Below are positions 7,442-32,015 of a DNA stretch of 64,000 nucleotides, in pieces. Each line of letters starts with the position of its first letter. Position 1 is the first letter of the stretch. The stretch comes from an uncultured Verrucomicrobiae bacterium. GTDB lineage: Bacteria; Verrucomicrobiota; Verrucomicrobiia; Palsa-1439. A model generated the notes under the pieces. That model searched no databases and was not told the DNA's origin. It saw only the letters and a list, made by a program, of their open reading frames with translations. The stretch spans positions 15,642-79,641 of the forward strand of contig CAWJFL010000022.1 of assembly GCA_963842185.1 (NCBI GenBank). The letters run 5' to 3'. Both the position numbers and the translations under genes were made by a program.

Positions 7442-8491
7442 TTACGCAGACGTTCCAGCCGCCCTCCCCCGCAAACTCTTGTATCGCCCGGTCAACGCCC
7501 GGTCATTTCGGCTCGTGAGAAACGATCGCATCATGACGCCGTAGACTTCGCCTCGTGAAATCTTCACGCGCCGCATTGGATCGAGCGGGTTCTCGACTCG
7601 CAACCGCGCAACCGTCATCAACCCAATCCAAATCGGCCAGATACATGCAAGGCGCAGTCGGGTCTCCGAACGGGGAATCTTCATCGTGTATTGCCAGCCG
7701 GCGTCGAGGTGGTCGACGGCTGTGTCGAGCCAGCGGGCATACACGTCACGAATCGCCTCAAACCTCTTCGGGTCGAGCAATGCGCGCGGCTCCTTCACCG
7801 GCAAATAGCATCGACCGATCCGCAGGTCCTTCGGGATATCGCGCAACACATTAACAAGTTGCAGACCTTTGCCGAAGCGCACGCCCAATTTACACATCTC
7901 GTCCACGTTCCAGTCACGGAGTGCGGGCAGATGCGCCACGCACATCTTGGTCCAGAACTCACCCACGCAGCCCGCCACCATATACGTGTAGCGGTTCAGT
8001 TCCTCGTCGCTCGACAACGCGACCAACTCGTTCTCCGTCTCGCCGGGAAACTGCTGCAAATCAAAAATCTGGCCGCCCACGATAATCTTCAACAGCTCCT
8101 GGATGCGGCGGCCATCGGCTTCGTCAAACCGCCCCAGCGCAATCACGCAGTCTTCCAGCCGCTCCAACAATTGTTTCTCGGCAGATGACGTCTGTTGCTC
8201 GGCAATCGCGCCCAGATCCGGCACGTGGGAGAGATTTTGGATCTGTTGCAGCGCGGCGATCCGTTTGGCGCGCGGAACCGCCTTCGTGTCGGCAATCGTG
8301 TCCGTCGCCCGCGCCAACAGGTACGCCAGCGAGATCTGCGGGCGAATCTCCCGCGGCAACACGCGGAGCGTCAGGTAAAACGAGCGAGATACGTCACGAA
8401 GCAGACGCCCAACCAGGAGACGCTGCTGATCTTCGGCCAGTGGCGGCAGGCACGGCTTTTGAGCCGTGATCTGGGAGGAGCCACTCTTCAT
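7442..8491 (-). CDS. Squalene/phytoene synthase family protein
   Basis: VSRSFYLTL, YLLARATDTIAD, YTYMVAGCVG, GKGLQLVNVLRD motifs; start at 8491 (MKSGSS) chosen over the longer ORF start. Confidence 0.88.
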   Translation of the reverse strand: MKSGSSQITAQKPCLPPLAEDQQRLLVGRLLRDVSRSFYLTLRVLPREIRPQISLAYLLARATDTIADTKAVPRAKRIAALQQIQNLSHVPDLGAIAEQQTSSAEKQLLERLEDCVIALGRFDEADGRRIQELLKIIVGGQIFDLQQFPGETENELVALSSDEELNRYTYMVAGCVGEFWTKMCVAHLPALRDWNVDEMCKLGVRFGKGLQLVNVLRDIPKDLRIGRCYLPVKEPRALLDPKRFEAIRDVYARWLDTAVDHLDAGWQYTMKIPRSETRLRLACIWPIWIGLMTVARLRVENPLDPMRRVKISRGEVYGVMMRSFLTSRNDRALTGRYKSLRGRAAGTSA

Positions 8492-23283: not shown

Positions 23284-24547
23284 TCACACCAGCCACGACG
23301 GAATCGTCTCGCCCGAAATCAGGTCCTTGACCGACTCACGCCGCCGCACCAGTTCGTACCGGCTCCCGTTCACCATCACTTCCGCTGGACGCGGTCGCGC
23401 ATTGTAGTTCGACGCCATCGCCATGCCGTACGCTCCCGCGCTCATCACGGCCAAGAGCGCGTCCTCTTCCACCGCCGCCAGACGCCGGCCCTGCGCCAAA
23501 AAATCACCGGACTCGCAGACCGGCCCGACGACGTCCGCCGTGATTCTCCGGCGCGCCGATTTGGCCGCCACGGGTATGATCTCGTGGTAGCTCCCGTACA
23601 ACGACGGACGAATCAGATCGTTCATCGCCGCGTCGACGATCACAAACCGCTTCACCGGCGTTCGTTTAATGTGCACCACTCGCGTCACCAGCACGCCGCC
23701 GTTCCCAACGATGAATCGTCCCGGCTCCAGCAATATCCGCAGTCCCAGGTTCTTCACCTGTGGCATGACCGCGCCGGGCAAATTCAACCGCCGTCGGCGG
23801 ACGTTCGTCCCGATACCGAATGCCCAGCCCGCCGCCCATGTCAAACGATTGCAGCGTGCGCGGCGCGATCTCGCGCACCTGCTCGATCAGCGGCGCGATC
23901 TTTCGGATCGCCAGCACGAACGGCGCGGTCCGGGTAATTTGCGAGCCGATGTGCATCTGGACCCCGCGGATTTCGATCCCATCCAGCCGAGCCGCCCGGC
24001 GATACACATCCAGCGCCTCGCGCAGCGAAATCCCGAACTTGCTTTCGTGTTTGCCCGTCGAGATGTAGTGGTGCGTGTCCGGGTCAACTCCCGGGTTCAC
24101 GCGGATCGCAATCGGCGCGCGCCGACCCATGCGTCGCGCCACCTCGGAAATCCGCCGCAACTCCGGCTCGCTTTCCACGTTGAACATGTGGATGCCCAGC
24201 TTCAACGCGTACTCGATCTCGTCCCGCGTTTTGCCCACGCCCGAGAACACGCATTTCCGTGGATCACCGCCGGCTTGCGCCACGCGGTAAAGTTCGCCGC
24301 CGCTCACAATGTCAAAACCGGTTCCCGACTGCGCCAGCGCGCGGAGCACCGCCACGTTGCTGTTGGCTTTGACCGCAAAACATATCAGGTGATCGAGCGG
24401 GCGCAGAGACCGGTTCAGATCGTCGCATTGCCCGGTGATGTGTCCCTGGCTGTACACGTACAACGGCGTGCCGAATTCCCCGGCGAGCCGACGTAGCGGC
24501 ACACCCTCGCAACACAATTCACCTTTACGGTATGGGAATGCGTTCAT
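23284..24547 (-). CDS. lysA: Diaminopimelate decarboxylase, with one +1 frameshift (~23777) in the assembly
   Basis: FAVKANSN, DIVSGGEL, ESKFGI, MHIGSQ, DMGGGLG, LEPGRFIV, VVGPVCESGD, GAYG.AMASNYN. Confidence 0.93.
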
Positions 24548-24802
24548 GGCCAGACTGAGCTTACCAACAACCTCTTACACCCGCAACATCAGAGCCATCT
24601 CGTAGCTGAGGCCCAACGCGCTGGAATGCCATTTTTCGCATCTAAAACCCACTCCACAACCCAGGAATCGGGTCCAAACACGCCAAACAAAGCCAAGTGA
24701 CAAAATGGCACACTCGCATCCATAACCAATTGTTCATCAAGCTAATCCACACATCACAGCACTCCGAAAAATTGGCTTTGTTTTGCCGATTTAACATTTG
24801 CT

Positions 24803-24967
24803 GGGCCCTACCTCCCCTCAGCGCGGTTGAAGGGGAGCCGTGGCGCCTGCCCCGACATCCCATGTCGGGGTGAACCGGGCGTCCGCTGAACGGCCGCCGT
24901 ATCCCTATTTCGAAGAACCATCTACACAACACGGCCCGTAATATCGGAACACCGATACACCAGTCAA
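24803..24967. other. Structured non-coding segment, candidate small RNA
   Basis: Nested stems: GGGCC/GGCCC, GCCGT/ACGGC, CCCCGACAT/ATGTCGGGG, CTCCCCT/AGGGGAG; no credible ORF; family not recognised. Confidence 0.4.
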
Positions 24968-25208
24968 GCCCATTTATCGATCTTGCCCGCCGTTGTAGCT
25001 GCGCTTTTTACCCCGATTCCGAGATCGGGGCTGTGAAGCGCAGGCCGTGCGCTCTTCCCACACGGCAGCCTCCCGAGCCGACCCCGGAGACTTGCATCAT
25101 CGGCCATGGAGGCCTACGTTATCATAGGTGGTAGAGGATGGACCTGACAGCGTAGCGGCCGGTTGGATTGACAACCAGTCTCAACTCCCGCCGCCGGGAA
25201 AGGTCGAT

Positions 25209-25517
25209 ATGGTAGCGATCAGCAGTATAAGCCAGCAGACGTTCCGCCAGTTGGTGTCAGCCGCTACAGCTTCGGAGATTGCCCTCGGAATCGAGGCCGA
25301 ATGGTTTGCCGACCGCGACGAAAGCATTCTTGGCGCCGTCGGATTCGGCGGGCGATTCAAGGGCTGGGGGTACGCGATGCTCAAGCGCGACACCCCCGAC
25401 GGCTTCCGCGTCTGTGTGCGGCAGGACCACTTCGCCACGCGCCACACCGCCAGAATCATGTTGCTCCGTCAAATGGCGGGGACCGAAACCGTCCCAGCCG
25501 AACCGCTGGCCGCGTAG
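25209..25517 (+). CDS. Hypothetical protein
   Basis: About 102 aa with GGAAAAGG upstream; start uncertain (ORF can extend to 25128). Confidence 0.55.
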   Translation: MVAISSISQQTFRQLVSAATASEIALGIEAEWFADRDESILGAVGFGGRFKGWGYAMLKRDTPDGFRVCVRQDHFATRHTARIMLLRQMAGTETVPAEPLAA

Positions 25518-25629
25518 GCAGGCCGAGTTGCGAAAATGGACGTTTTTTGGCACTGTCCTGTCGGTTCGTTGTATCCGCCATTCATAATCGCGGGCCGTCC
25601 GTCCGTCTTGCCTTCTCCTGTAGGCGTGG

Positions 25630-25721
25630 CCGCAATTCACGCCGAATCGCGCCGCCTGCCCTGAGCTTGTCGAACGGGCCACCTCGCGCATCTCTTTCGT
25701 CAGCGTGAATCGACCGCACAT
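25630..25721 (-). pseudogene. 5' fragment of an SOS-response-associated peptidase (SRAP) with an in-frame REP insertion
   Basis: MCGRFTLTKEMREVA[RSTSSGQA]ARFGV; MCGRF is the SRAP N-terminal signature and similarity ends after about 30 codons. Confidence 0.55.
25654..25679 (-). repeat. REP-like element GCCCGTTCGACAAGCTCAGGGCAGGC
   Basis: TTCGACAAGCTCAGG core (reads PFDKLRA / STSSG), a motif I recall from dispersed bacterial repeats. Confidence 0.6.
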
Positions 25722-25858
25722 GCCACCTTAAGAATACCCGCGCAGCAGTTTCACGGCAACCTGCTTTCGGTACGCAAGAAGCGTGGAAGGCAGATCGGCT
25801 ACGTGCCTTCGCTAGCGTCCGATTGCTGGTTCTTGCGGTGGGTGTTACTATCCGAGAC

Positions 25859-26191
25859 ATGAAGACGGACGTGATCTTTCTTGGGGCAGGCGCATCTGTG
25901 GGCGCCGGATTTCCAGACAATCGTGAGCTGGTCAACTACATCATCGACAAGCTGGAATTGCCGTCTAACGCGGCCGTTCTTGAGCCCCTAATAGAGAAGC
26001 TTCATAAGCGACGAGGCCTCTGTTTATCCCAGTAACGATCTAAGCGCGTTCAGCGATATATGGCAGCATGGATTGATGGCCTTTCCAATGATTGATTTCC
26101 CGTGGGAGCCCGACGCGGTGGTTTCGAAGAACCACCGCAATCAGCCCAGTAGACGGATAGACGTAGTCGACGCGGTCACCGCTTTCCTATT
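25859..26191 (+). pseudogene. SIR2-like gene remnant, frameshifted and interrupted by the IS1595 element
   Basis: MKTDVIFLGAGASVGAGFP..ELV sirtuin start; stop at 26035; an adjacent frame stays open up to the insertion site. Confidence 0.55.
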
Positions 26192-26204
26192 CGGAATTAT
26201 GCAC

Positions 26205-26233
26205 TTGACAAAACGGCCTACCGCCTGTAGTGT
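26205..26233 (+). promoter_or_regulatory. Transposase promoter overlapping the left IR
   Basis: TTGACA-N17-TAGTGT; the GTG start is 7 nt after the -10. Confidence 0.6.
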
Positions 26234-26239
26234 AGGGGC

Positions 26240-27217
26240 GTGAAGAATGGAAGGAACGGAAACAACGCCAACCCGGCCCGGTCGCAGAAGGGGCAAGGAG
26301 TGCCGAATCTCAGCGAAGATGAGGCTCGTGAGCATCTGGAGGGCTTGCTCTGGCCCGGCGGCGTTGCTGTTTGCCCCCATTGCAACGGCACGGATGCGTA
26401 TCGGCTGACCGGACCGGGAGTGCGGCCCGGTGTTCGCCAGTGCCGAGCCTGCGTGAAACAATTCACGGTCACGGTCGGAACGATTTTTGAGGACAGCCAC
26501 ATTCCACTATCGAAATGGGTGCAGGCGTTTCACATGATGGCGTCCAGCAAGAAGGGTATCAGCGCGTCACAGCTACAGCGCAACTTGGGCTTTGGCTCCT
26601 ATCGAACGGCATGGCACATGGCGCATCGAATCCGGCTAGCGATGCAGTGCGAGCCGTTCGCGGCGGCGTTGCAGGGCGAAATTGAAGTCGATGAATGTTA
26701 CGTCGGTGGAAAACCACGGCCCGGCGACGGCAAGGTTCACAAGAAAGGTCGGGGCACATCGAAAACCCCGGTGGTAGCATTGGTGCAACGTGACGGGCCA
26801 TCCCGAACAAGAGTGGTCGAACGAGTCAACTCCAAGACGTTGCACGCGGCGATCAAAGAGAACGTAGCGAAGCCATCCATCATCGTGACAGACGAATTCC
26901 TACCGTATCAGGGAATCGGCAAGCACTACGATGGCGCACACTTCACTGTGAATCACGGAATAGGACAGTACGCGAACGGGCCGATTCACACAAACACAGC
27001 GGAAAGTTTTTTCGCGCTGCTCAAAAGAGGCGTTCACGGCACGTTCCATCACGTTTCCAAGAAGCACTTGTCCCGGTACTGCGACGAATTCTCCTACCGA
27101 TGGGACACGCGCAAGGAGCCGGATAGTGATCGCAGGGACAAGGCGCTCAGACAGAGCAAGGGCAAGCGGTTGACGTACTACCGGCTGCGGAATTCCAATC
27201 GACCGAGCAAAGCTTGA
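26240..27217 (+). CDS. tnp: IS1595-family (ISXO2-like) transposase
   Basis: Zn ribbon CPHC...CRAC, HTH KKGISASQLQRNLG..SYRTAW, EVDECYVGG, IVTDEF, HTNTAESFF, YCDEFSYR. Confidence 0.95.
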   Translation: MKNGRNGNNANPARSQKGQGVPNLSEDEAREHLEGLLWPGGVAVCPHCNGTDAYRLTGPGVRPGVRQCRACVKQFTVTVGTIFEDSHIPLSKWVQAFHMMASSKKGISASQLQRNLGFGSYRTAWHMAHRIRLAMQCEPFAAALQGEIEVDECYVGGKPRPGDGKVHKKGRGTSKTPVVALVQRDGPSRTRVVERVNSKTLHAAIKENVAKPSIIVTDEFLPYQGIGKHYDGAHFTVNHGIGQYANGPIHTNTAESFFALLKRGVHGTFHHVSKKHLSRYCDEFSYRWDTRKEPDSDRRDKALRQSKGKRLTYYRLRNSNRPSKA

Positions 27218-27275
27218 GTCCCGGTCATACTGGTGCTACAGAACCACCTGATGACATGTGCCTGTGGACAAAACG

Positions 27276-27752
27276 CTACTGACGCTGCGAAAAAAATTCC
27301 GGCGGCAGGTCCGGCGGCGTCGCATCCTCGAAAGCAACTTTCTGCGCCCGCCACCTATCGCGACCTCCGTCGTGCCACTGTTGACGGAGCAGACGGCCTA
27401 GCCATGCTTGTGGGGAAGAACGGGATGCTTCTTGTGCAAATAATCGGGTCAACTCAGTTTTTTGACCCGGAGAATAAATTGAAGCCCGCAGGCTTAACAG
27501 TCGCACGAATACTAGCTCGCGGACTTGCGGAGTTAAATCTGGCCATTTTTTATTTGCTGCAAAGGAGTCACAGGCTTCATCTACTTTTGTGCACAAAGAG
27601 CTTTCCTGCACAATCATGGCAGCGTGAATGGATGCAGAGCTTAACGGAGCCATCTGATTAACCATCCTACGCTCCACAGGGATTTTGCGTTCGATGCTTT
27701 CGGTTTGGTTTTGCAACTCCAATTCAAGCGCCATGAAGTCCATGAGAGCCAT
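27276..27752 (-). CDS. Hypothetical IS passenger protein
   Basis: 158-aa helical-looking ORF convergent on tnp. Confidence 0.55.
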   Translation of the reverse strand: MALMDFMALELELQNQTESIERKIPVERRMVNQMAPLSSASIHAAMIVQESSLCTKVDEACDSFAANKKWPDLTPQVRELVFVRLLSLRASIYSPGQKTELTRLFAQEASRSSPQAWLGRLLRQQWHDGGRDRWRAQKVAFEDATPPDLPPEFFSQRQ

Positions 27753-27833
27753 GCTGCGACAGGGCAAAACCTCATGTCAATGCGAATCGCATATCCTGTT
27801 TGAACGCCGACCCGCCAACTCACGGCGGGTGAG

Positions 27834-28136
27834 TCAATGGCCCGTGCGGGCCGGTGTGCTATCGGCCTTCACCGGCTGTTTGGATTTTTCCCCATCGGCC
27901 TGCCGGACCAGTTGAATCACTGGTGCGATTCCCGGCGGGGCGAATTCACGTCCGCAACAGTAGCAGCGCATTTGCGCCATACGGTTTTGAGCGCTGCAAT
28001 GCGGACAGTTCTTGAGGCGCGGTTTTGGGTGTCTGGAAAGGCACCACATGAGAAACATCGGGCCAAGCCCGAAGATCGCGACTAGAAGCACCAGCCCAAG
28101 AATGTCTTTACTGCTCAGGACGTATGGATTTGCCAT
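27834..28136 (-). CDS. Membrane-anchored double zinc-ribbon protein (IS passenger)
   Basis: TM helix ILGLVLLVAIFGLGPMFLMW followed by CPHC...RCYCCG. Confidence 0.7.
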   Translation of the reverse strand: MANPYVLSSKDILGLVLLVAIFGLGPMFLMWCLSRHPKPRLKNCPHCSAQNRMAQMRCYCCGREFAPPGIAPVIQLVRQADGEKSKQPVKADSTPARTGH

Positions 28137-28504
28137 GGCTACTTTCTGCGTTAGAAAGACAGCGCGACGTGGCGCTCCGGTGTGACGGGCGCATTTGTGT
28201 CACTACCGCGTCAGCGTTGCAAGAAGTTTGTTGCGCTTGATTCAGCCAGTCGCATTTCCTACACTGCGCGACAGGAGAACCATATCGAGAGACCTTAATC
28301 GCTAAACAATTCCGCGTAGCTTCGGCTGCTGTCATCACGAAACTAGGAACTTCGGCACCAACGACACAGCGCATCGAGGCACGCCCCGCGCAAGGGGTGT
28401 GCTGAAATCGCTTCGTTGGTGGGCATCCTAGTGCCTGTGATGGGGTGAGAGTAAGTGCGCCCCCTTTTTTGTGACTGGCTCCCGTGCGACGCGACAAGGG
28501 AGCC

Positions 28505-29233
28505 ATGAAACGAATACCGCCAATTGTCGTTATGCTGCTTTTGTTTGCCGTCCCTTCCTTTGGTCAGACCGACGAGCCAGCCGGTCCGAAAATCTGGAGT
28601 CCATCTGAGCAACGCTGGGTGCAATGGGAATCGTCTCACCATACGAATTCGACGGCGAAGAGTGAATCAATCGCTCCGCAGGAGGGGCAGCTATACGCTT
28701 CATTTGGTCCAGCCGTTGTGGTTGGTAGAGGGGAGTTTCCCGACCTTGCCGGATTCAAGAATAGCACCGTCACTCGTTATGGCGGATACGGCAGCATTGA
28801 GCGTTTCGTCACACGGTCGGTCTCGCTGCAAGGGTCAGTAGCCGGAATCTCGGAGGCAGTGGAAGCTACCGATGGCGGATTCCATGCAAGTGCCACGGCG
28901 TATCAAGTTGGACTGGACGGGAAGTTGTATCCACTTCAGCTTGGCAGACCGAATCAATGCAGAGCGCAACCATATATCATAGCCGGAATTGCCGGTCTTT
29001 TCTTTGACGTGAGCAACAATGGCGGCGTGTCGGCCAGCATCGACCCGATGGCGATTGGTGAGGCAGGTGTCGGAACGGATATTCTGATTTCCTACCAATG
29101 GGCGGTGATGATTGACGCGATGTACTATCACAGCCTTGCAAACTCTGATGCGAGGGTATCCGGGGTGGGTTCCACGCCGCTAGAATTGAGCGGTGTGGCA
29201 GTGAGAGTCGGAGCGCGTTTCCGATTCTGGTGA
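28505..29233 (+). CDS. Outer-membrane beta-barrel protein, OmpA/OmpW-like (IS passenger)
   Basis: Signal peptide MKRIPPIVVMLLLFAVPSFG; amphipathic strands (QPYIIAGIAGLFF, GEAGVGTDI); aromatic C-terminus VGARFRFW. Confidence 0.8.
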   Translation: MKRIPPIVVMLLLFAVPSFGQTDEPAGPKIWSPSEQRWVQWESSHHTNSTAKSESIAPQEGQLYASFGPAVVVGRGEFPDLAGFKNSTVTRYGGYGSIERFVTRSVSLQGSVAGISEAVEATDGGFHASATAYQVGLDGKLYPLQLGRPNQCRAQPYIIAGIAGLFFDVSNNGGVSASIDPMAIGEAGVGTDILISYQWAVMIDAMYYHSLANSDARVSGVGSTPLELSGVAVRVGARFRFW

Positions 29234-29312
29234 TTGACTTCCATACAAGAGTAGCTGGAAAATATATGCGATTCGCATTATGGTGACGTGGACAACAAAG
29301 GTGGGGTACAAC

Positions 29313-29483
29313 ATGGCAAATCAAACTCGTAAATCTCATCCCGGTCGCGGTGGTCTTAGAGTATCAGTCAGCCCGCTGACCGGCGATCAAGCACTAGCAG
29401 CAGCATTGCGGGTCCGGCCTGCCGATTTGAAGCGAGCGGAGCAGGCCGAGAAGCAACGCAACGGCAAACGCAACGGCTCCTAG
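29313..29483 (+). CDS. Small basic protein (IS passenger)
   Basis: MANQTRK...VSPLTGDQALAAALRVRP, 56 aa. Confidence 0.45.
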   Translation: MANQTRKSHPGRGGLRVSVSPLTGDQALAAALRVRPADLKRAEQAEKQRNGKRNGS

Positions 29484-29610
29484 ATTTCTTAGCGGGGGCC
29501 TGTCGGGTTCGCCGCACCAGTGACACTAAATGGTTTGGGTGGATTCGGCGGGCCTTCCGCGTTTTTACCGGCTTGCCTCATAATGCGAGTCACATCATTA
29601 TCAAAGAGCC

Positions 29611-29991
29611 ATGAGCGAGGACGATGACGCAAGAAAACTCTCTGACGAAGAAATCGACCGGAGAATCCTAAACGCCGACTACAATACTAGGTGGTGGCAA
29701 GCACTCGACCATGAGCGCAAACGCAGGCAGCACGACAAACACCTTGAACAACTACGGACGATGGAAACCCGTCTGGCCCGGCCCCACTGGACGACTACTC
29801 CGGGATTTTGGGTTGCCGTGGTAGCTGCGATATTTGCCGCGATTGCGGCATGGCCCGTAATCCGAGAATGGTTTCAATGCGCTCCATCCGCGAGTACAGA
29901 CGACAGTTTCCAACAGCCACAATTGCATTCAGCGCCAGCGATACCACCAACGCAGCAAATGTCCCAACCCGTACCGCCCGCTCGTCCGTAG
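29611..29991 (+). CDS. Hypothetical single-TM protein (IS passenger)
   Basis: Charged N-terminus, TM GFWVAVVAAIFAAIAAW, Pro/Gln tail. Confidence 0.55.
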   Translation: MSEDDDARKLSDEEIDRRILNADYNTRWWQALDHERKRRQHDKHLEQLRTMETRLARPHWTTTPGFWVAVVAAIFAAIAAWPVIREWFQCAPSASTDDSFQQPQLHSAPAIPPTQQMSQPVPPARP

Positions 29992-30135
29992 AACTCATCA
30001 CTATCTGCCTAGCACTGATTTGAACCCGTTACAACTTTCCGCTATGGAACATACCGATGACTAGTCACACATCCGGTGGTGGGGATTTCGTCAAGTGCAT
30101 AAGCCCGTTCCTATTTACAAACTAGAACACCGGCA

Positions 30136-30368
30136 GCCTTCGCCCGCGCTCCCTGTCGCCCCGTAGCGCTCTGCGCGAAGGCGGATGCCCGTCGTCAACC
30201 CTGCGTTTCGAATTTCGACATTCGGATTTCGAGTTTCGTGTAAGGGCCTCACCGCCCTACAATTTACGGAGCAGACGTCGCGAAGGGTTTTGCCCGATTT
30301 GGCCCCTCAACAAATCGGGCAAAGATCCAACCAGCCGCTCTCCGCGATCTCCGCGCCTCTGCGTGAGA
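30136..30368. repeat. Cluster of short repeats and palindromes
   Basis: GCCTTCGC/GCGAAGGC stem (30136-30182); about 5 TTTCGAn heptamers (30206-30238); perfect 13-bp hairpin (30289-30323); CTCTCCGCGATCTCCGCGCCTCTGCGTGAGA (30338-30368). Confidence 0.6.
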
Positions 30369-30383
30369 CAACGCCGCTGCCCG

Positions 30384-31190
30384 CTACAACCACGCCGCGA
30401 TCCGGTCCGCAATCCCCTTGTCACAGACCGGGCCCAACACCTTCCGGACGCGTTCCTTGGCCTGATCCCGGGGATATTCCACATCGTACTTCTCCACCCG
30501 CCACTCGTTCCCCTCCAGCTCGTCGAGAATCAGGTATTCGGGCCGCCGCTCGGCGTTGGTCGGGAATCCAACCGACCCCGTGCCGATCCAGCCGAGATCG
30601 TCTCGTCTCAATCGGACCGGGTGCGGATCGCGCCCTTCCCCCTCATGCGTCGTCATCGGCACGAGCACGATCGGTTTCTCTTCCTCGGATACCTCCGCCC
30701 GCATCATATGGGTGTGGCCATAGAAACACACCCGCCCGTTGTTAAACCGCAAACAGGCCAACTCGACCTTCGCGTTCCGGGCCGCGCGATGATACCCGCC
30801 GCTGCTCGGCGCCACCAGCGAGTCGTGCGTCAACCAGATCGTGTCATTCACGCACGTCGTCAGATACGGCGCGTCGATGAACTCCTTCGCCCACGGCTTG
30901 TCCTCCATTAGCCCCCACGTGTACGCCAGCGTCTGGATCGCTTCCGGGCTGTACCCGGTCGATTCCACGTCCCCGCGCAGCGCCAGTTCATGGTTTCCCG
31001 CCACCCAGGCCAGGTTGCTGTTGTCCACCAAGGGCTTTAGCCGCTCCATGCACTCCAGGGGGTCCGGGCCGTACCCGATGAGATCGCCGACGAACAAATA
31101 CGCTTCCGCGCCGCGGGCTTGGCCAGCCGCCAACACGGCATCCAGCGCCAACAGGTTCGCGTGTACGTCTCCAAATACGAGGTATCTCAT
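30384..31190 (-). CDS. Calcineurin-like metallophosphoesterase
   Basis: GDVHAN, GDLIGYG, GNHE, GHTH, GSVG.P. Confidence 0.92.
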   Translation of the reverse strand: MRYLVFGDVHANLLALDAVLAAGQARGAEAYLFVGDLIGYGPDPLECMERLKPLVDNSNLAWVAGNHELALRGDVESTGYSPEAIQTLAYTWGLMEDKPWAKEFIDAPYLTTCVNDTIWLTHDSLVAPSSGGYHRAARNAKVELACLRFNNGRVCFYGHTHMMRAEVSEEEKPIVLVPMTTHEGEGRDPHPVRLRRDDLGWIGTGSVGFPTNAERRPEYLILDELEGNEWRVEKYDVEYPRDQAKERVRKVLGPVCDKGIADRIAAWL

Positions 31191-31193
31191 CGG

Positions 31194-32015
31194 TCAAGCC
31201 TTATCCGCCGCGGTTCGACCATGCTCACCACAAGCCAATAGCGCCGCACCCGTCACGACCACCGTCTCCCCCAGCGCCGCGGGAACAATCCGGAAATTCC
31301 GGCGAAACGGCCCGAATACGAACCCCTTCGCCGTCTCGCGGACGGGTCGCAAAAACTTCTCGCCCGCTCGCGCCACGCCGCCGCCGACCACCACAATGTC
31401 CGGATTGAGCAACGTGATCGCGTTGGCGAGGGCAACACCGTAATACCTGGCCGACTGCGCCAGCGTGGTCTTCCCTCGCTCGATCGACAATCCCGACGAC
31501 AATTCCTCCAGAATCCGCCACCGGCCGCGCACGAAAAATCGGGTGTGACCGATCTCCGTCGCGCCGAATCGCCCGTTCTGAATCTTCCCGTCGACCACAA
31601 ACCCGCCGCCGATTCCGGTCCCGACGTTCGAGTACAGCACCGCCCGCCGTCCCCGACCCGCGCCGATCCGCGCCTCCGCCAGCGTCGCGACATTGGTATC
31701 GTTTTCGATAACGGTCGGCAGTTGGAAGCGTTGCCGAAACCATCGCCGCAAGGCAAACCCGTCCCAACCGTCGATATGAAAGGAGCGCATTACCCGGCCA
31801 TGGGGAGCATCTACCGGGCCACCAAAACCAACCCCGATGCCCCGCACCGCACGGTCGTCCAGCAACGGTGGAATGATCTGTCCCAGTTGCTTGAGAATCC
31901 CGCGAGCGCCGTCGCGTCGCACGACCGCGACCCGCACGAGTTGGACGATTCGACCCCGCCGGTCGCACACGCCCACCTGTAGCTTCGTCCCGCCGATCTC
32001 CACGCCGAGGTACAT
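31194..32015 (-). CDS. ROK-family sugar kinase
   Basis: GVEIGGTK, GFGGPVD, ENDTN.A.LAE, GTGIGGG, EIGH. Confidence 0.9.
   Translation of the reverse strand: MYLGVEIGGTKLQVGVCDRRGRIVQLVRVAVVRRDGARGILKQLGQIIPPLLDDRAVRGIGVGFGGPVDAPHGRVMRSFHIDGWDGFALRRWFRQRFQLPTVIENDTNVATLAEARIGAGRGRRAVLYSNVGTGIGGGFVVDGKIQNGRFGATEIGHTRFFVRGRWRILEELSSGLSIERGKTTLAQSARYYGVALANAITLLNPDIVVVGGGVARAGEKFLRPVRETAKGFVFGPFRRNFRIVPAALGETVVVTGAALLACGEHGRTAADKA

Follow-up and report, generated by a model that had tools for sequence, protein, structure and literature searches.

A transporter insertion sequence of the IS1595 family with a predicted envelope-gene cassette and an uncatalogued structured RNA in a Verrucomicrobiota genome

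A 64,000-nucleotide (nt) stretch from the genome of an uncultured Verrucomicrobiae bacterium (contig CAWJFL010000022.1; hereafter the window, from whose position 1 the element coordinates are counted) contains a 3,916-bp element at 26192-30107 that is bounded by terminal inverted repeats (IRs), as determined by direct reading and a repeat search. Very probably, this element is an intact IS1595-family transporter insertion sequence (tIS) that moved as a unit. The tIS concept has been published with the IS1595 member ISNha5 as a standard example (PMC11891212, PMC7986276), and tIS of this family, such as ISNha5 and the passenger-carrying ISNwi1 group, were described by Siguier, Gagnevin and Chandler (2009), as cited in those two articles; the element reported here is a new example of a class known since 2009. 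Between its IRs lie 2.9 kb of non-transposase DNA with five open reading frames (ORFs) and one RNA gene, and this uncatalogued structured RNA, carried as cargo, is the most novel component.

The left and right IRs (IRL and IRR) are identical at 16 of 18 positions, or 19 of 22 over their extended length, and a copy of the same 8-bp sequence stands flush with each tip (Table 1). Identity at all eight of these fixed positions would be expected by chance with a probability of 4^-8, or ~1.5e-5. The IR pattern CGGNNTTATGCACTTGAC has two zero-mismatch matches in the window, which are the two ends of the element, and an IR scan of the element detected no relic or other IR-like sequence within it, including the region just after the transposase gene. 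A first-pass annotation of this DNA had proposed these ends, the 16/18 repeats and the perfect duplication, and direct reading and the repeat search showed the coordinates to be exact to the base; given the two pattern matches in the window and the absence of an internal IR, its caveat that the right IR might belong to a separate element did not materialize.

The transposase, also called intact in the first-pass annotation, is an uninterrupted ORF of 325 amino acids (aa) that begins 48 nt inside IRL and encodes complete zinc ribbon and DDE domains. It matches PF12762 (DDE_Tnp_IS1595; 2e-39, model positions 2-153 of 153), PF12760 (Zn_ribbon; 7.5e-13, model positions 1-46 of 46) and the NCBIfam model NF033547 (208.6 bits, with a cutoff of 75). 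Residues D151, D218, E255 and K262 (+7) are invariant among six aligned family members, and all four cysteines of the N-terminal CxxC...CxxC zinc ribbon (C45, C48, C68 and C71) are present. Under the published definition of the IS1595 family, a Zn_ribbon_IS1595 zinc finger occurs in all groups but IS1016 (PMC8101967). The element thus combines the DDE domain, zinc finger, IRs and 8-bp duplication of the IS1595 family, to which it had been assigned at the outset. More than 7,500 relatives of the transposase were found at E<=1e-20, the nearest of which (P0001) has 82% aa identity; a tblastn search of plasmids with the transposase returned generic 'IS1595 family transposase' names, all at <=45% identity.

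In its anatomy, the element resembles ISNha5 and the ISNwi1-group tIS, as its one transposase is of the DDE type with a zinc ribbon at the N-terminus, its short terminal IRs are accompanied by an 8-bp duplication, and genes unconnected with transposition lie between the IRs. It differs from them in its host phylum, Verrucomicrobiota, and from ISNha5 in its cargo, which is an envelope cassette with a putative structured RNA leader; the published passengers of ISNha5, in contrast, are described as transcription regulators (PMC11891212). Likewise, transposase domains, IRs and 8-bp duplication are common to this element and to plain IS1595 insertion sequences (ISs) of 0.7-1.2 kb (PMC8101967), but the present element measures 3.9 kb and has five extra ORFs and an RNA gene. 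The passengers located between the IRs would travel with them, which is the defining property of a tIS. As an IS, it is a modest gain: the tIS is clean and intact, both of its boundaries are defined, and the phylum has been little studied.

Sister elements were found that bear directly on the claim that the whole unit moved as one. A congeneric metagenome-assembled genome (MAG), G009, carries a sister at a different locus. This sister shares its IR tips with the present element, is flanked by a perfect duplication of its own (TTTTATTT) and keeps the cargo order, namely divergent ORF, palindrome, zinc-ribbon ORF, RNA, beta-barrel and small basic ORF, and the similarity between the two elements begins and ends exactly at the IR tips. 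The G009 sister has a frameshifted transposase and adds two lipoprotein genes and 0.7 kb past a decayed internal IRR. This decayed IRR (L009 6940-6963 on contig C1) lies ~690 bp inside the functional one (7631-7652), which suggests that cargo can grow by use of an outer end instead of the original end.

Perfect 8-bp duplications flank all six family members inspected, each at a different locus (Table 1). Their cargo varies, consisting of type IIG restriction-modification (R-M) enzymes, coiled-coil proteins or envelope genes, with other proteins in L018, L019 and L118. The transposase relative P0001 has an identical IRL and is followed directly by a type IIG R-M enzyme (Eco57I/MmeI-type) of >907 aa; such cargo is thus present in two members, L200 (3665-6385, with this closest transposase relative) and L149 (1251-3759). 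Sister elements with other cargo had been predicted by the first-pass annotation, and because these sisters combine the same IRs with differing cargo, the IR-bounded unit is the mobile unit and its cargo is exchangeable. Furthermore, CGGNNTTATGCACTTGAC ends are present on at least 120 metagenome contigs, and paired ends on single metagenome contigs are 718, 855, 972, 1,274 and 2,352-3,704 bp apart. The IR pairs separated by 718-972 bp (L075 41-758, L122 791-1645 and L111 3958-4929) are too short for a transposase and are probably non-autonomous derivatives resembling miniature inverted-repeat transposable elements (MITEs). A large and widespread subgroup with varied cargo, including complete type IIG R-M enzymes, supports the view that single-transposase ISs are routine carriers of defence and surface genes, and not only of resistance.

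The host genome, a 4.18-Mb MAG in 27 contigs, carries one copy of the element. Contig C16 encodes two further IS1595 transposases, which were considered as a second copy and rejected, being just 48% and 41% identical; the sequence CGGAATTAT also occurs near one of these two, but within coding DNA and with no partner IR, and was dismissed as a coincidence. The GC content of the element is 55.3%, compared with a genome mean of 59.5 +/- 1.9%, and falls in the lowest 2.7% of equal-sized windows. Same-genus genomes keep the left flank (~25070-25725) and the right-flank gene (30384-31300) on one contig at 83-90% nt identity, and no element sequence was found between these conserved flanks in 17 same-genus genomes; the possibility raised earlier, that relatives hold the internal genes at this locus without the IRs or the duplication, was therefore seen in 0 of 17. 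When the flanks were joined in silico, no intact gene was found to be interrupted by the insertion. The left flank at 25700-26191 contains stop-interrupted ORF remnants only (e.g., 25823-26035, with a GAGASVGAG motif) and is lower in GC than the neighbouring genes, indicating that the IS landed in DNA that had already decayed. We infer a recent insertion solely because duplication and transposase are both intact, the GC content is low and congeners lack the element. The insertion is very probably younger than the split of the sampled congeners, and the element very probably originated outside this genome.

The tIS belongs to a widespread subgroup with termini CGGnnTTATGCACTTGAC. In the mechanism proposed here, its single DDE transposase would recognise both IRs and insert all 3,916 bp into an intergenic stretch that was AT-richer and already degenerate, where a staggered cut would give the 8-bp duplication TTCCTATT. 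This insertion step is deduced from the anatomy of the element and from the sister elements. The small basic ORF near IRR perhaps belongs to the element itself, and the captured part would be a lineage-specific envelope cassette comprising a zinc-ribbon membrane protein, a promoter with a structured leader RNA and terminator, a beta-barrel gene and a transmembrane (TM) protein. A TGCGAnTCGCA palindrome stands before three of the cargo genes.

Two other explanations of the locus were weighed. A plain IS1595 element of ~1.1 kb, made up of IRL and the transposase, might lie beside native genes, with the right IR, 2.9 kb away, as a solo end or MITE of another copy and the cargo never having moved with the transposase. 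The family does have short MITE-like derivatives (718-972 bp), and the decayed IRR inside the functional end of the G009 sister shows that extra ends can occur nearby; however, the identical 8-bp duplication is found only at the outermost tips, no IR-like sequence follows the transposase directly, and in G009 this gene order recurs elsewhere in the genome, enclosed by a separate pair of IRs with a separate duplication. The cargo is also missing at this locus in the 17 congeners, and its GC content (54.6%) is as atypical as that of the transposase, so that this explanation appears very improbable. A larger genomic island brought in by an integrase, conjugative element or phage, with the IS ends being incidental, would account for the low GC of the left flank, for the decayed defence-like gene remnants found there, and for the variable spacer between the flanking genes among relatives. 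No integrase, tRNA or att-like repeat is located nearby, however, the limits of similarity to the G009 sister coincide exactly with the IR tips, the duplication has the same 8-bp size in six of six family members, and units with these boundaries already recur at unrelated loci among close sisters; an island is likewise considered highly unlikely.

It should be noted that several observations weigh against the preferred interpretation of 26192-30107 as a single, recently inserted tIS. IRL and IRR mismatch at 3 of 22 positions, and a single copy gives no sign of activity in the host genome. No exact empty site was found in the relatives aligned (G003, G015 and G001), in each of which the spacer between the flanking genes differs, and a 25-mer across the predicted empty-site junction (...GGTCACCGCTTTCCTATT joined directly to TACAAACTAG...) matches no metagenome contig. 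Similarity within the family of the 56-aa basic ORF is weak, at 22-34% identity. As to subgroup, the tip CGGAATTAT and the D-D-E-K(+7) arrangement (E255...K262) may correspond to the ISfinder consensus of the ISNwi1 and ISNha5 groups, either of which is a candidate subgroup for the element.

Table 1. Features of the element at 26192-30107 of the window, copies of its structured RNA, and the six family members inspected for target-site duplications.
Feature	Location	Strand	Support and remarks
Left copy of 8-bp target-site duplication, TTCCTATT	26184-26191	.	Same as 30108-30115; flush with IRL tip
IRL, left terminal inverted repeat, CGGAATTATGCACTTGACAAAA	26192-26213	+	Direct reading, repeat search; tip recurs in sister elements
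IS1595-family DDE transposase, 325 aa, intact	26240-27217	+	PF12762, PF12760, NF033547; alignment of six members
163-aa ORF, function unknown	27276-27767	-	No family match; both G009 copies have divergent counterparts at this position
Palindromic site 1, AATGCGAATCGCATAT, core TGCGAnTCGCA	27779-27794	.	12 nt upstream of 163-aa ORF start; putative operator
100-aa ORF, N-terminal TM helix, CPHC...CYCC zinc-ribbon-like tail	27834-28136	-	Weak zinc-finger matches only
Sigma-70-like promoter, TTGATT-17 nt-TACACT	28237-28265	+	Upstream of RNA; 8/12 consensus, below promoter-scan cut-off
Structured non-coding RNA, ~157 nt	28312-28468	+	Model R1; alignment, covariation, covariance model
Hairpin GGCUCCC...GGGAGCC over Shine-Dalgarno of barrel gene	28477-28504	+	Direct reading; G009 copy GGCUUCC...GGGAGCC
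Predicted outer-membrane beta-barrel, 242 aa, signal peptide MKRIPPIVVMLLLFAVPSFGQ, C-terminal FRFW	28505-29233	+	Alternative start 28484
Palindromic site 2, ATATGCGATTCGCATT	29264-29279	.	Site 1 exactly inverted; precedes small basic ORF
56-aa basic ORF (MANQTRKSHPGRGG...)	29313-29483	+	Alternative start 29280; counterparts in L018, L019, L149
Palindromic site 3, CATAATGCGAGTCACAT	29579-29595	.	One mismatch to core; upstream of 126-aa ORF
126-aa ORF, one central TM helix, function unknown	29611-29991	+	No family match
IRR, right terminal inverted repeat; reverse complement CGGGCTTATGCACTTGACGAAA	30086-30107	-	Direct reading, repeat search
Right copy of 8-bp target-site duplication, TTCCTATT	30108-30115	.	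Direct reading; flush with IRR tip
Native host RNA copies	C16:240563-240720(-), C17:61982-62134(+), C16:434266-434430(+)		Model R1
G009 RNA copies	L009 4470-4622; L010 602-756		
Family member: this element, 3,916 bp	Window		Duplication TTCCTATT; envelope cassette
Family member: congeneric MAG G009, 5,211 bp	Contig C1, L009 2442-7652		Duplication TTTTATTT; same IR tips and cargo order
Family member: Myxococcaceae MAG, 1,977 bp	L018		Duplication ACAGACGC; IRs 24/24
Family member: alphaproteobacterium, 2,817 bp	L019		Duplication TTCGTTTC; cargo upstream of transposase
Family member: metagenome contig, 3,432 bp	L118		Duplication ATAAAATT; cargo of unknown proteins
Family member: metagenome contig, 3,704 bp	L149		Duplication AAAAAGTT; type IIG-like R-M enzyme (HSDR_N, N6_Mtase, specificity domain)

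The structured RNA is flanked by the zinc-ribbon ORF and the barrel gene. In an alignment of 26 sequences (A5), its fold opens with a 5' cUUCGg hairpin, continues as an irregular rod of ~110 nt whose apical hairpin is capped by GCAA, and closes with an intrinsic terminator (GGGGUGAG...GCGCCCCC, then a U run) that has an 8-bp GC-rich stem. Across the 52-pair structure, 93% of cells are paired, compared with 41-51% when the partners are slid by 1-3 columns; compensatory double changes occur at 26 pairs (163 cells), and the observed covariation was reached by none of 500 shuffles. Searches of Rfam 15 gave no match at E<=1, either in window positions 24000-32000 (cmscan) or on RNA copies at 11 other loci, and a literature search returned no described Verrucomicrobia RNA motif of relevance. 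A -10 box similar to that of the promoter-like sequence upstream (TACACT or TAGACT) stands before other RNA copies, and this conservation points to the boxes as the RNA promoter. The hairpin just downstream of the RNA would mask the Shine-Dalgarno site from which the barrel gene is translated. Two candidate switching arrangements were rejected: a switch between an outer helix and the terminator, which overlapped in the first fold, is not supported by the refined alignment, where both lie side by side without competition, and the apical hairpin, though similar to the arms of the terminator, does not covary with them as an antiterminator would. No convincing covarying antiterminator was found in the RNA alignment, and the mixed downstream genes point to no ligand.

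By blastn, the RNA stretch is present in 27 of 45 genomes of the bacterial family, in 1-14 copies per genome at 74-80% identity, and the covariance model R1 detected it in 17 of 401 genomes sampled across the phylum, the host included. Four R1 sites are found in the host genome, namely the IS-borne copy (131 bits) and three divergent native copies (41-56 bits). Many of the copies in G041, G009 and others are situated close to contig ends. R1 found no copy in the 120 metagenome contigs with the same IS ends, and this absence, together with the native host copies, indicates that the RNA-barrel cassette is DNA of the host lineage, captured by the Verrucomicrobial branch of the IS, and not part of the IS machinery.

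In all 14 contexts inspected, the gene after the RNA is co-oriented with it and starts 25-130 nt past the terminator, which has a probability of ~6e-5 under random orientation. The products of these downstream genes are beta-barrels, lipoproteins, secreted or TM proteins, RadC, a DNA methyltransferase, restriction-type helicases and a nuclease/ComEA protein. With a covariation-backed structure, a terminator and a co-oriented next gene throughout, the RNA has the features of a leader and is, on balance, likely to act in cis, as an attenuator or riboswitch-like leader. The alternative of a free-standing small RNA (sRNA) that acts in trans and ends at its own terminator would be compatible with the promoter-like boxes, the strong terminator (8-bp GC-rich stem and U run) and the lack of a convincing covarying antiterminator, and the presence of up to 14 copies in some genomes is reminiscent of sibling sRNA families. 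The consistent orientation and spacing of the next gene in 14 of 14 contexts and the Shine-Dalgarno-sequestering hairpin that follows the terminator both here and in G009 speak against such an sRNA, however, and it is regarded as rather unlikely. Returning to the cis-acting leader, a broader proposal can be put forward tentatively: the RNA may represent an undescribed class (riboswitch or factor-dependent attenuator) that gates transcription of horizontally acquired envelope and DNA-defence genes across Verrucomicrobiota, one copy having been captured here by an IS along with the gene under its control. If this were true, a regulatory RNA would have spread by transposition as a ready-made 'promoter-sensor-gene' cassette.

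The radC and STAXI RNA motifs of Proteobacteria are structured, non-coding RNAs that precede genes for RadC, methyltransferase, anti-restriction and integrase proteins. The RNA described here is similar to them in that copies in other Verrucomicrobiota are likewise followed by genes for RadC, DNA methyltransferase and restriction helicases, and it also rides a mobile element; however, it has no Rfam match at E<=1 to either model, comes from another phylum, ends in an intrinsic terminator and also precedes envelope genes. Compared with the IS, this RNA is the larger potential gain, being covariation-backed, absent from Rfam, multi-copy in a bacterial family and located upstream of a co-oriented gene in every context inspected.

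The first-pass annotation had described the cargo as envelope and unknown proteins. All five ORFs are present (Table 1), but the structured RNA had been overlooked and the small basic ORF is perhaps not cargo. Searches of the cargo proteins against Pfam, NCBIfam and PHROGs gave nothing past weak zinc-finger matches and a match of the beta-barrel protein to PF13505 (OMP_b-brl; 8.5e-5) that is below the gathering score. Homologues of the beta-barrel protein occur in 2 of 44 other genomes of the family, G009 (37% aa identity) and G015 (33%). The 100-aa ORF is divergent from the unit of RNA and outer-membrane protein gene, and both G009 copies hold zinc-ribbon ORFs at the same position. Part of the 163-aa ORF region (27577-27799) is matched at 87% nt identity on G009 contig C2 (L010 1-223). 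Homology of the 126-aa TM ORF to a TM ORF in L019 was considered and is unsupported (E=0.077).

Counterparts of the 56-aa basic ORF adjoin an IR in L018, L019 and L149, and have in common a PL..(D/E)xAL(R/A)AxM motif followed by a lysine/proline-rich tail. Judging from this position and the weak similarity, the ORF may be a second core gene of the element and not captured cargo; if it is core, its recurrence makes the subgroup a two-gene element.

The window has three TGCGAnTCGCA sites, every one of them within the element and 10-30 nt ahead of the start of a cargo ORF. Over 16 nt, sites 1 and 2 are exact inverted copies of each other, and both G009 copies conserve the palindromic sites. The motif is not enriched in the window, where three sites were seen and ~5 were expected at <=1 mismatch. 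The location of all sites inside the element, the exact inverted copies and the conservation in G009 point to TGCGAnTCGCA as a putative operator for an element-encoded regulator, and an operator-like palindrome before cargo genes could alter the understanding of this subgroup. A possible further copy was noted at 30057-30069, and the G009 element has one just inside IRR (L009 ~7600-7612).

Outside the element, short flanking intergenic stretches at 24682-24799, 30188-30238 and 30250-30371 have many copies in the host genome and congeners, at 78-97% identity; these dispersed repeat families have no relation to the IS. Lastly, on a 1,818-bp metagenome contig (L148 950-1000), the tips of an IRR and an IRL face each other with exactly 8 bp between them (...CATAATTCCG AACGGGAG CGGAATTATG...). 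Such a head-to-tail junction would result equally from a tandem dimer, from a circular intermediate or from two insertions with a common target duplication; it hints at a circular or tandem transposition intermediate and bears on the transposition pathway of IS1595.

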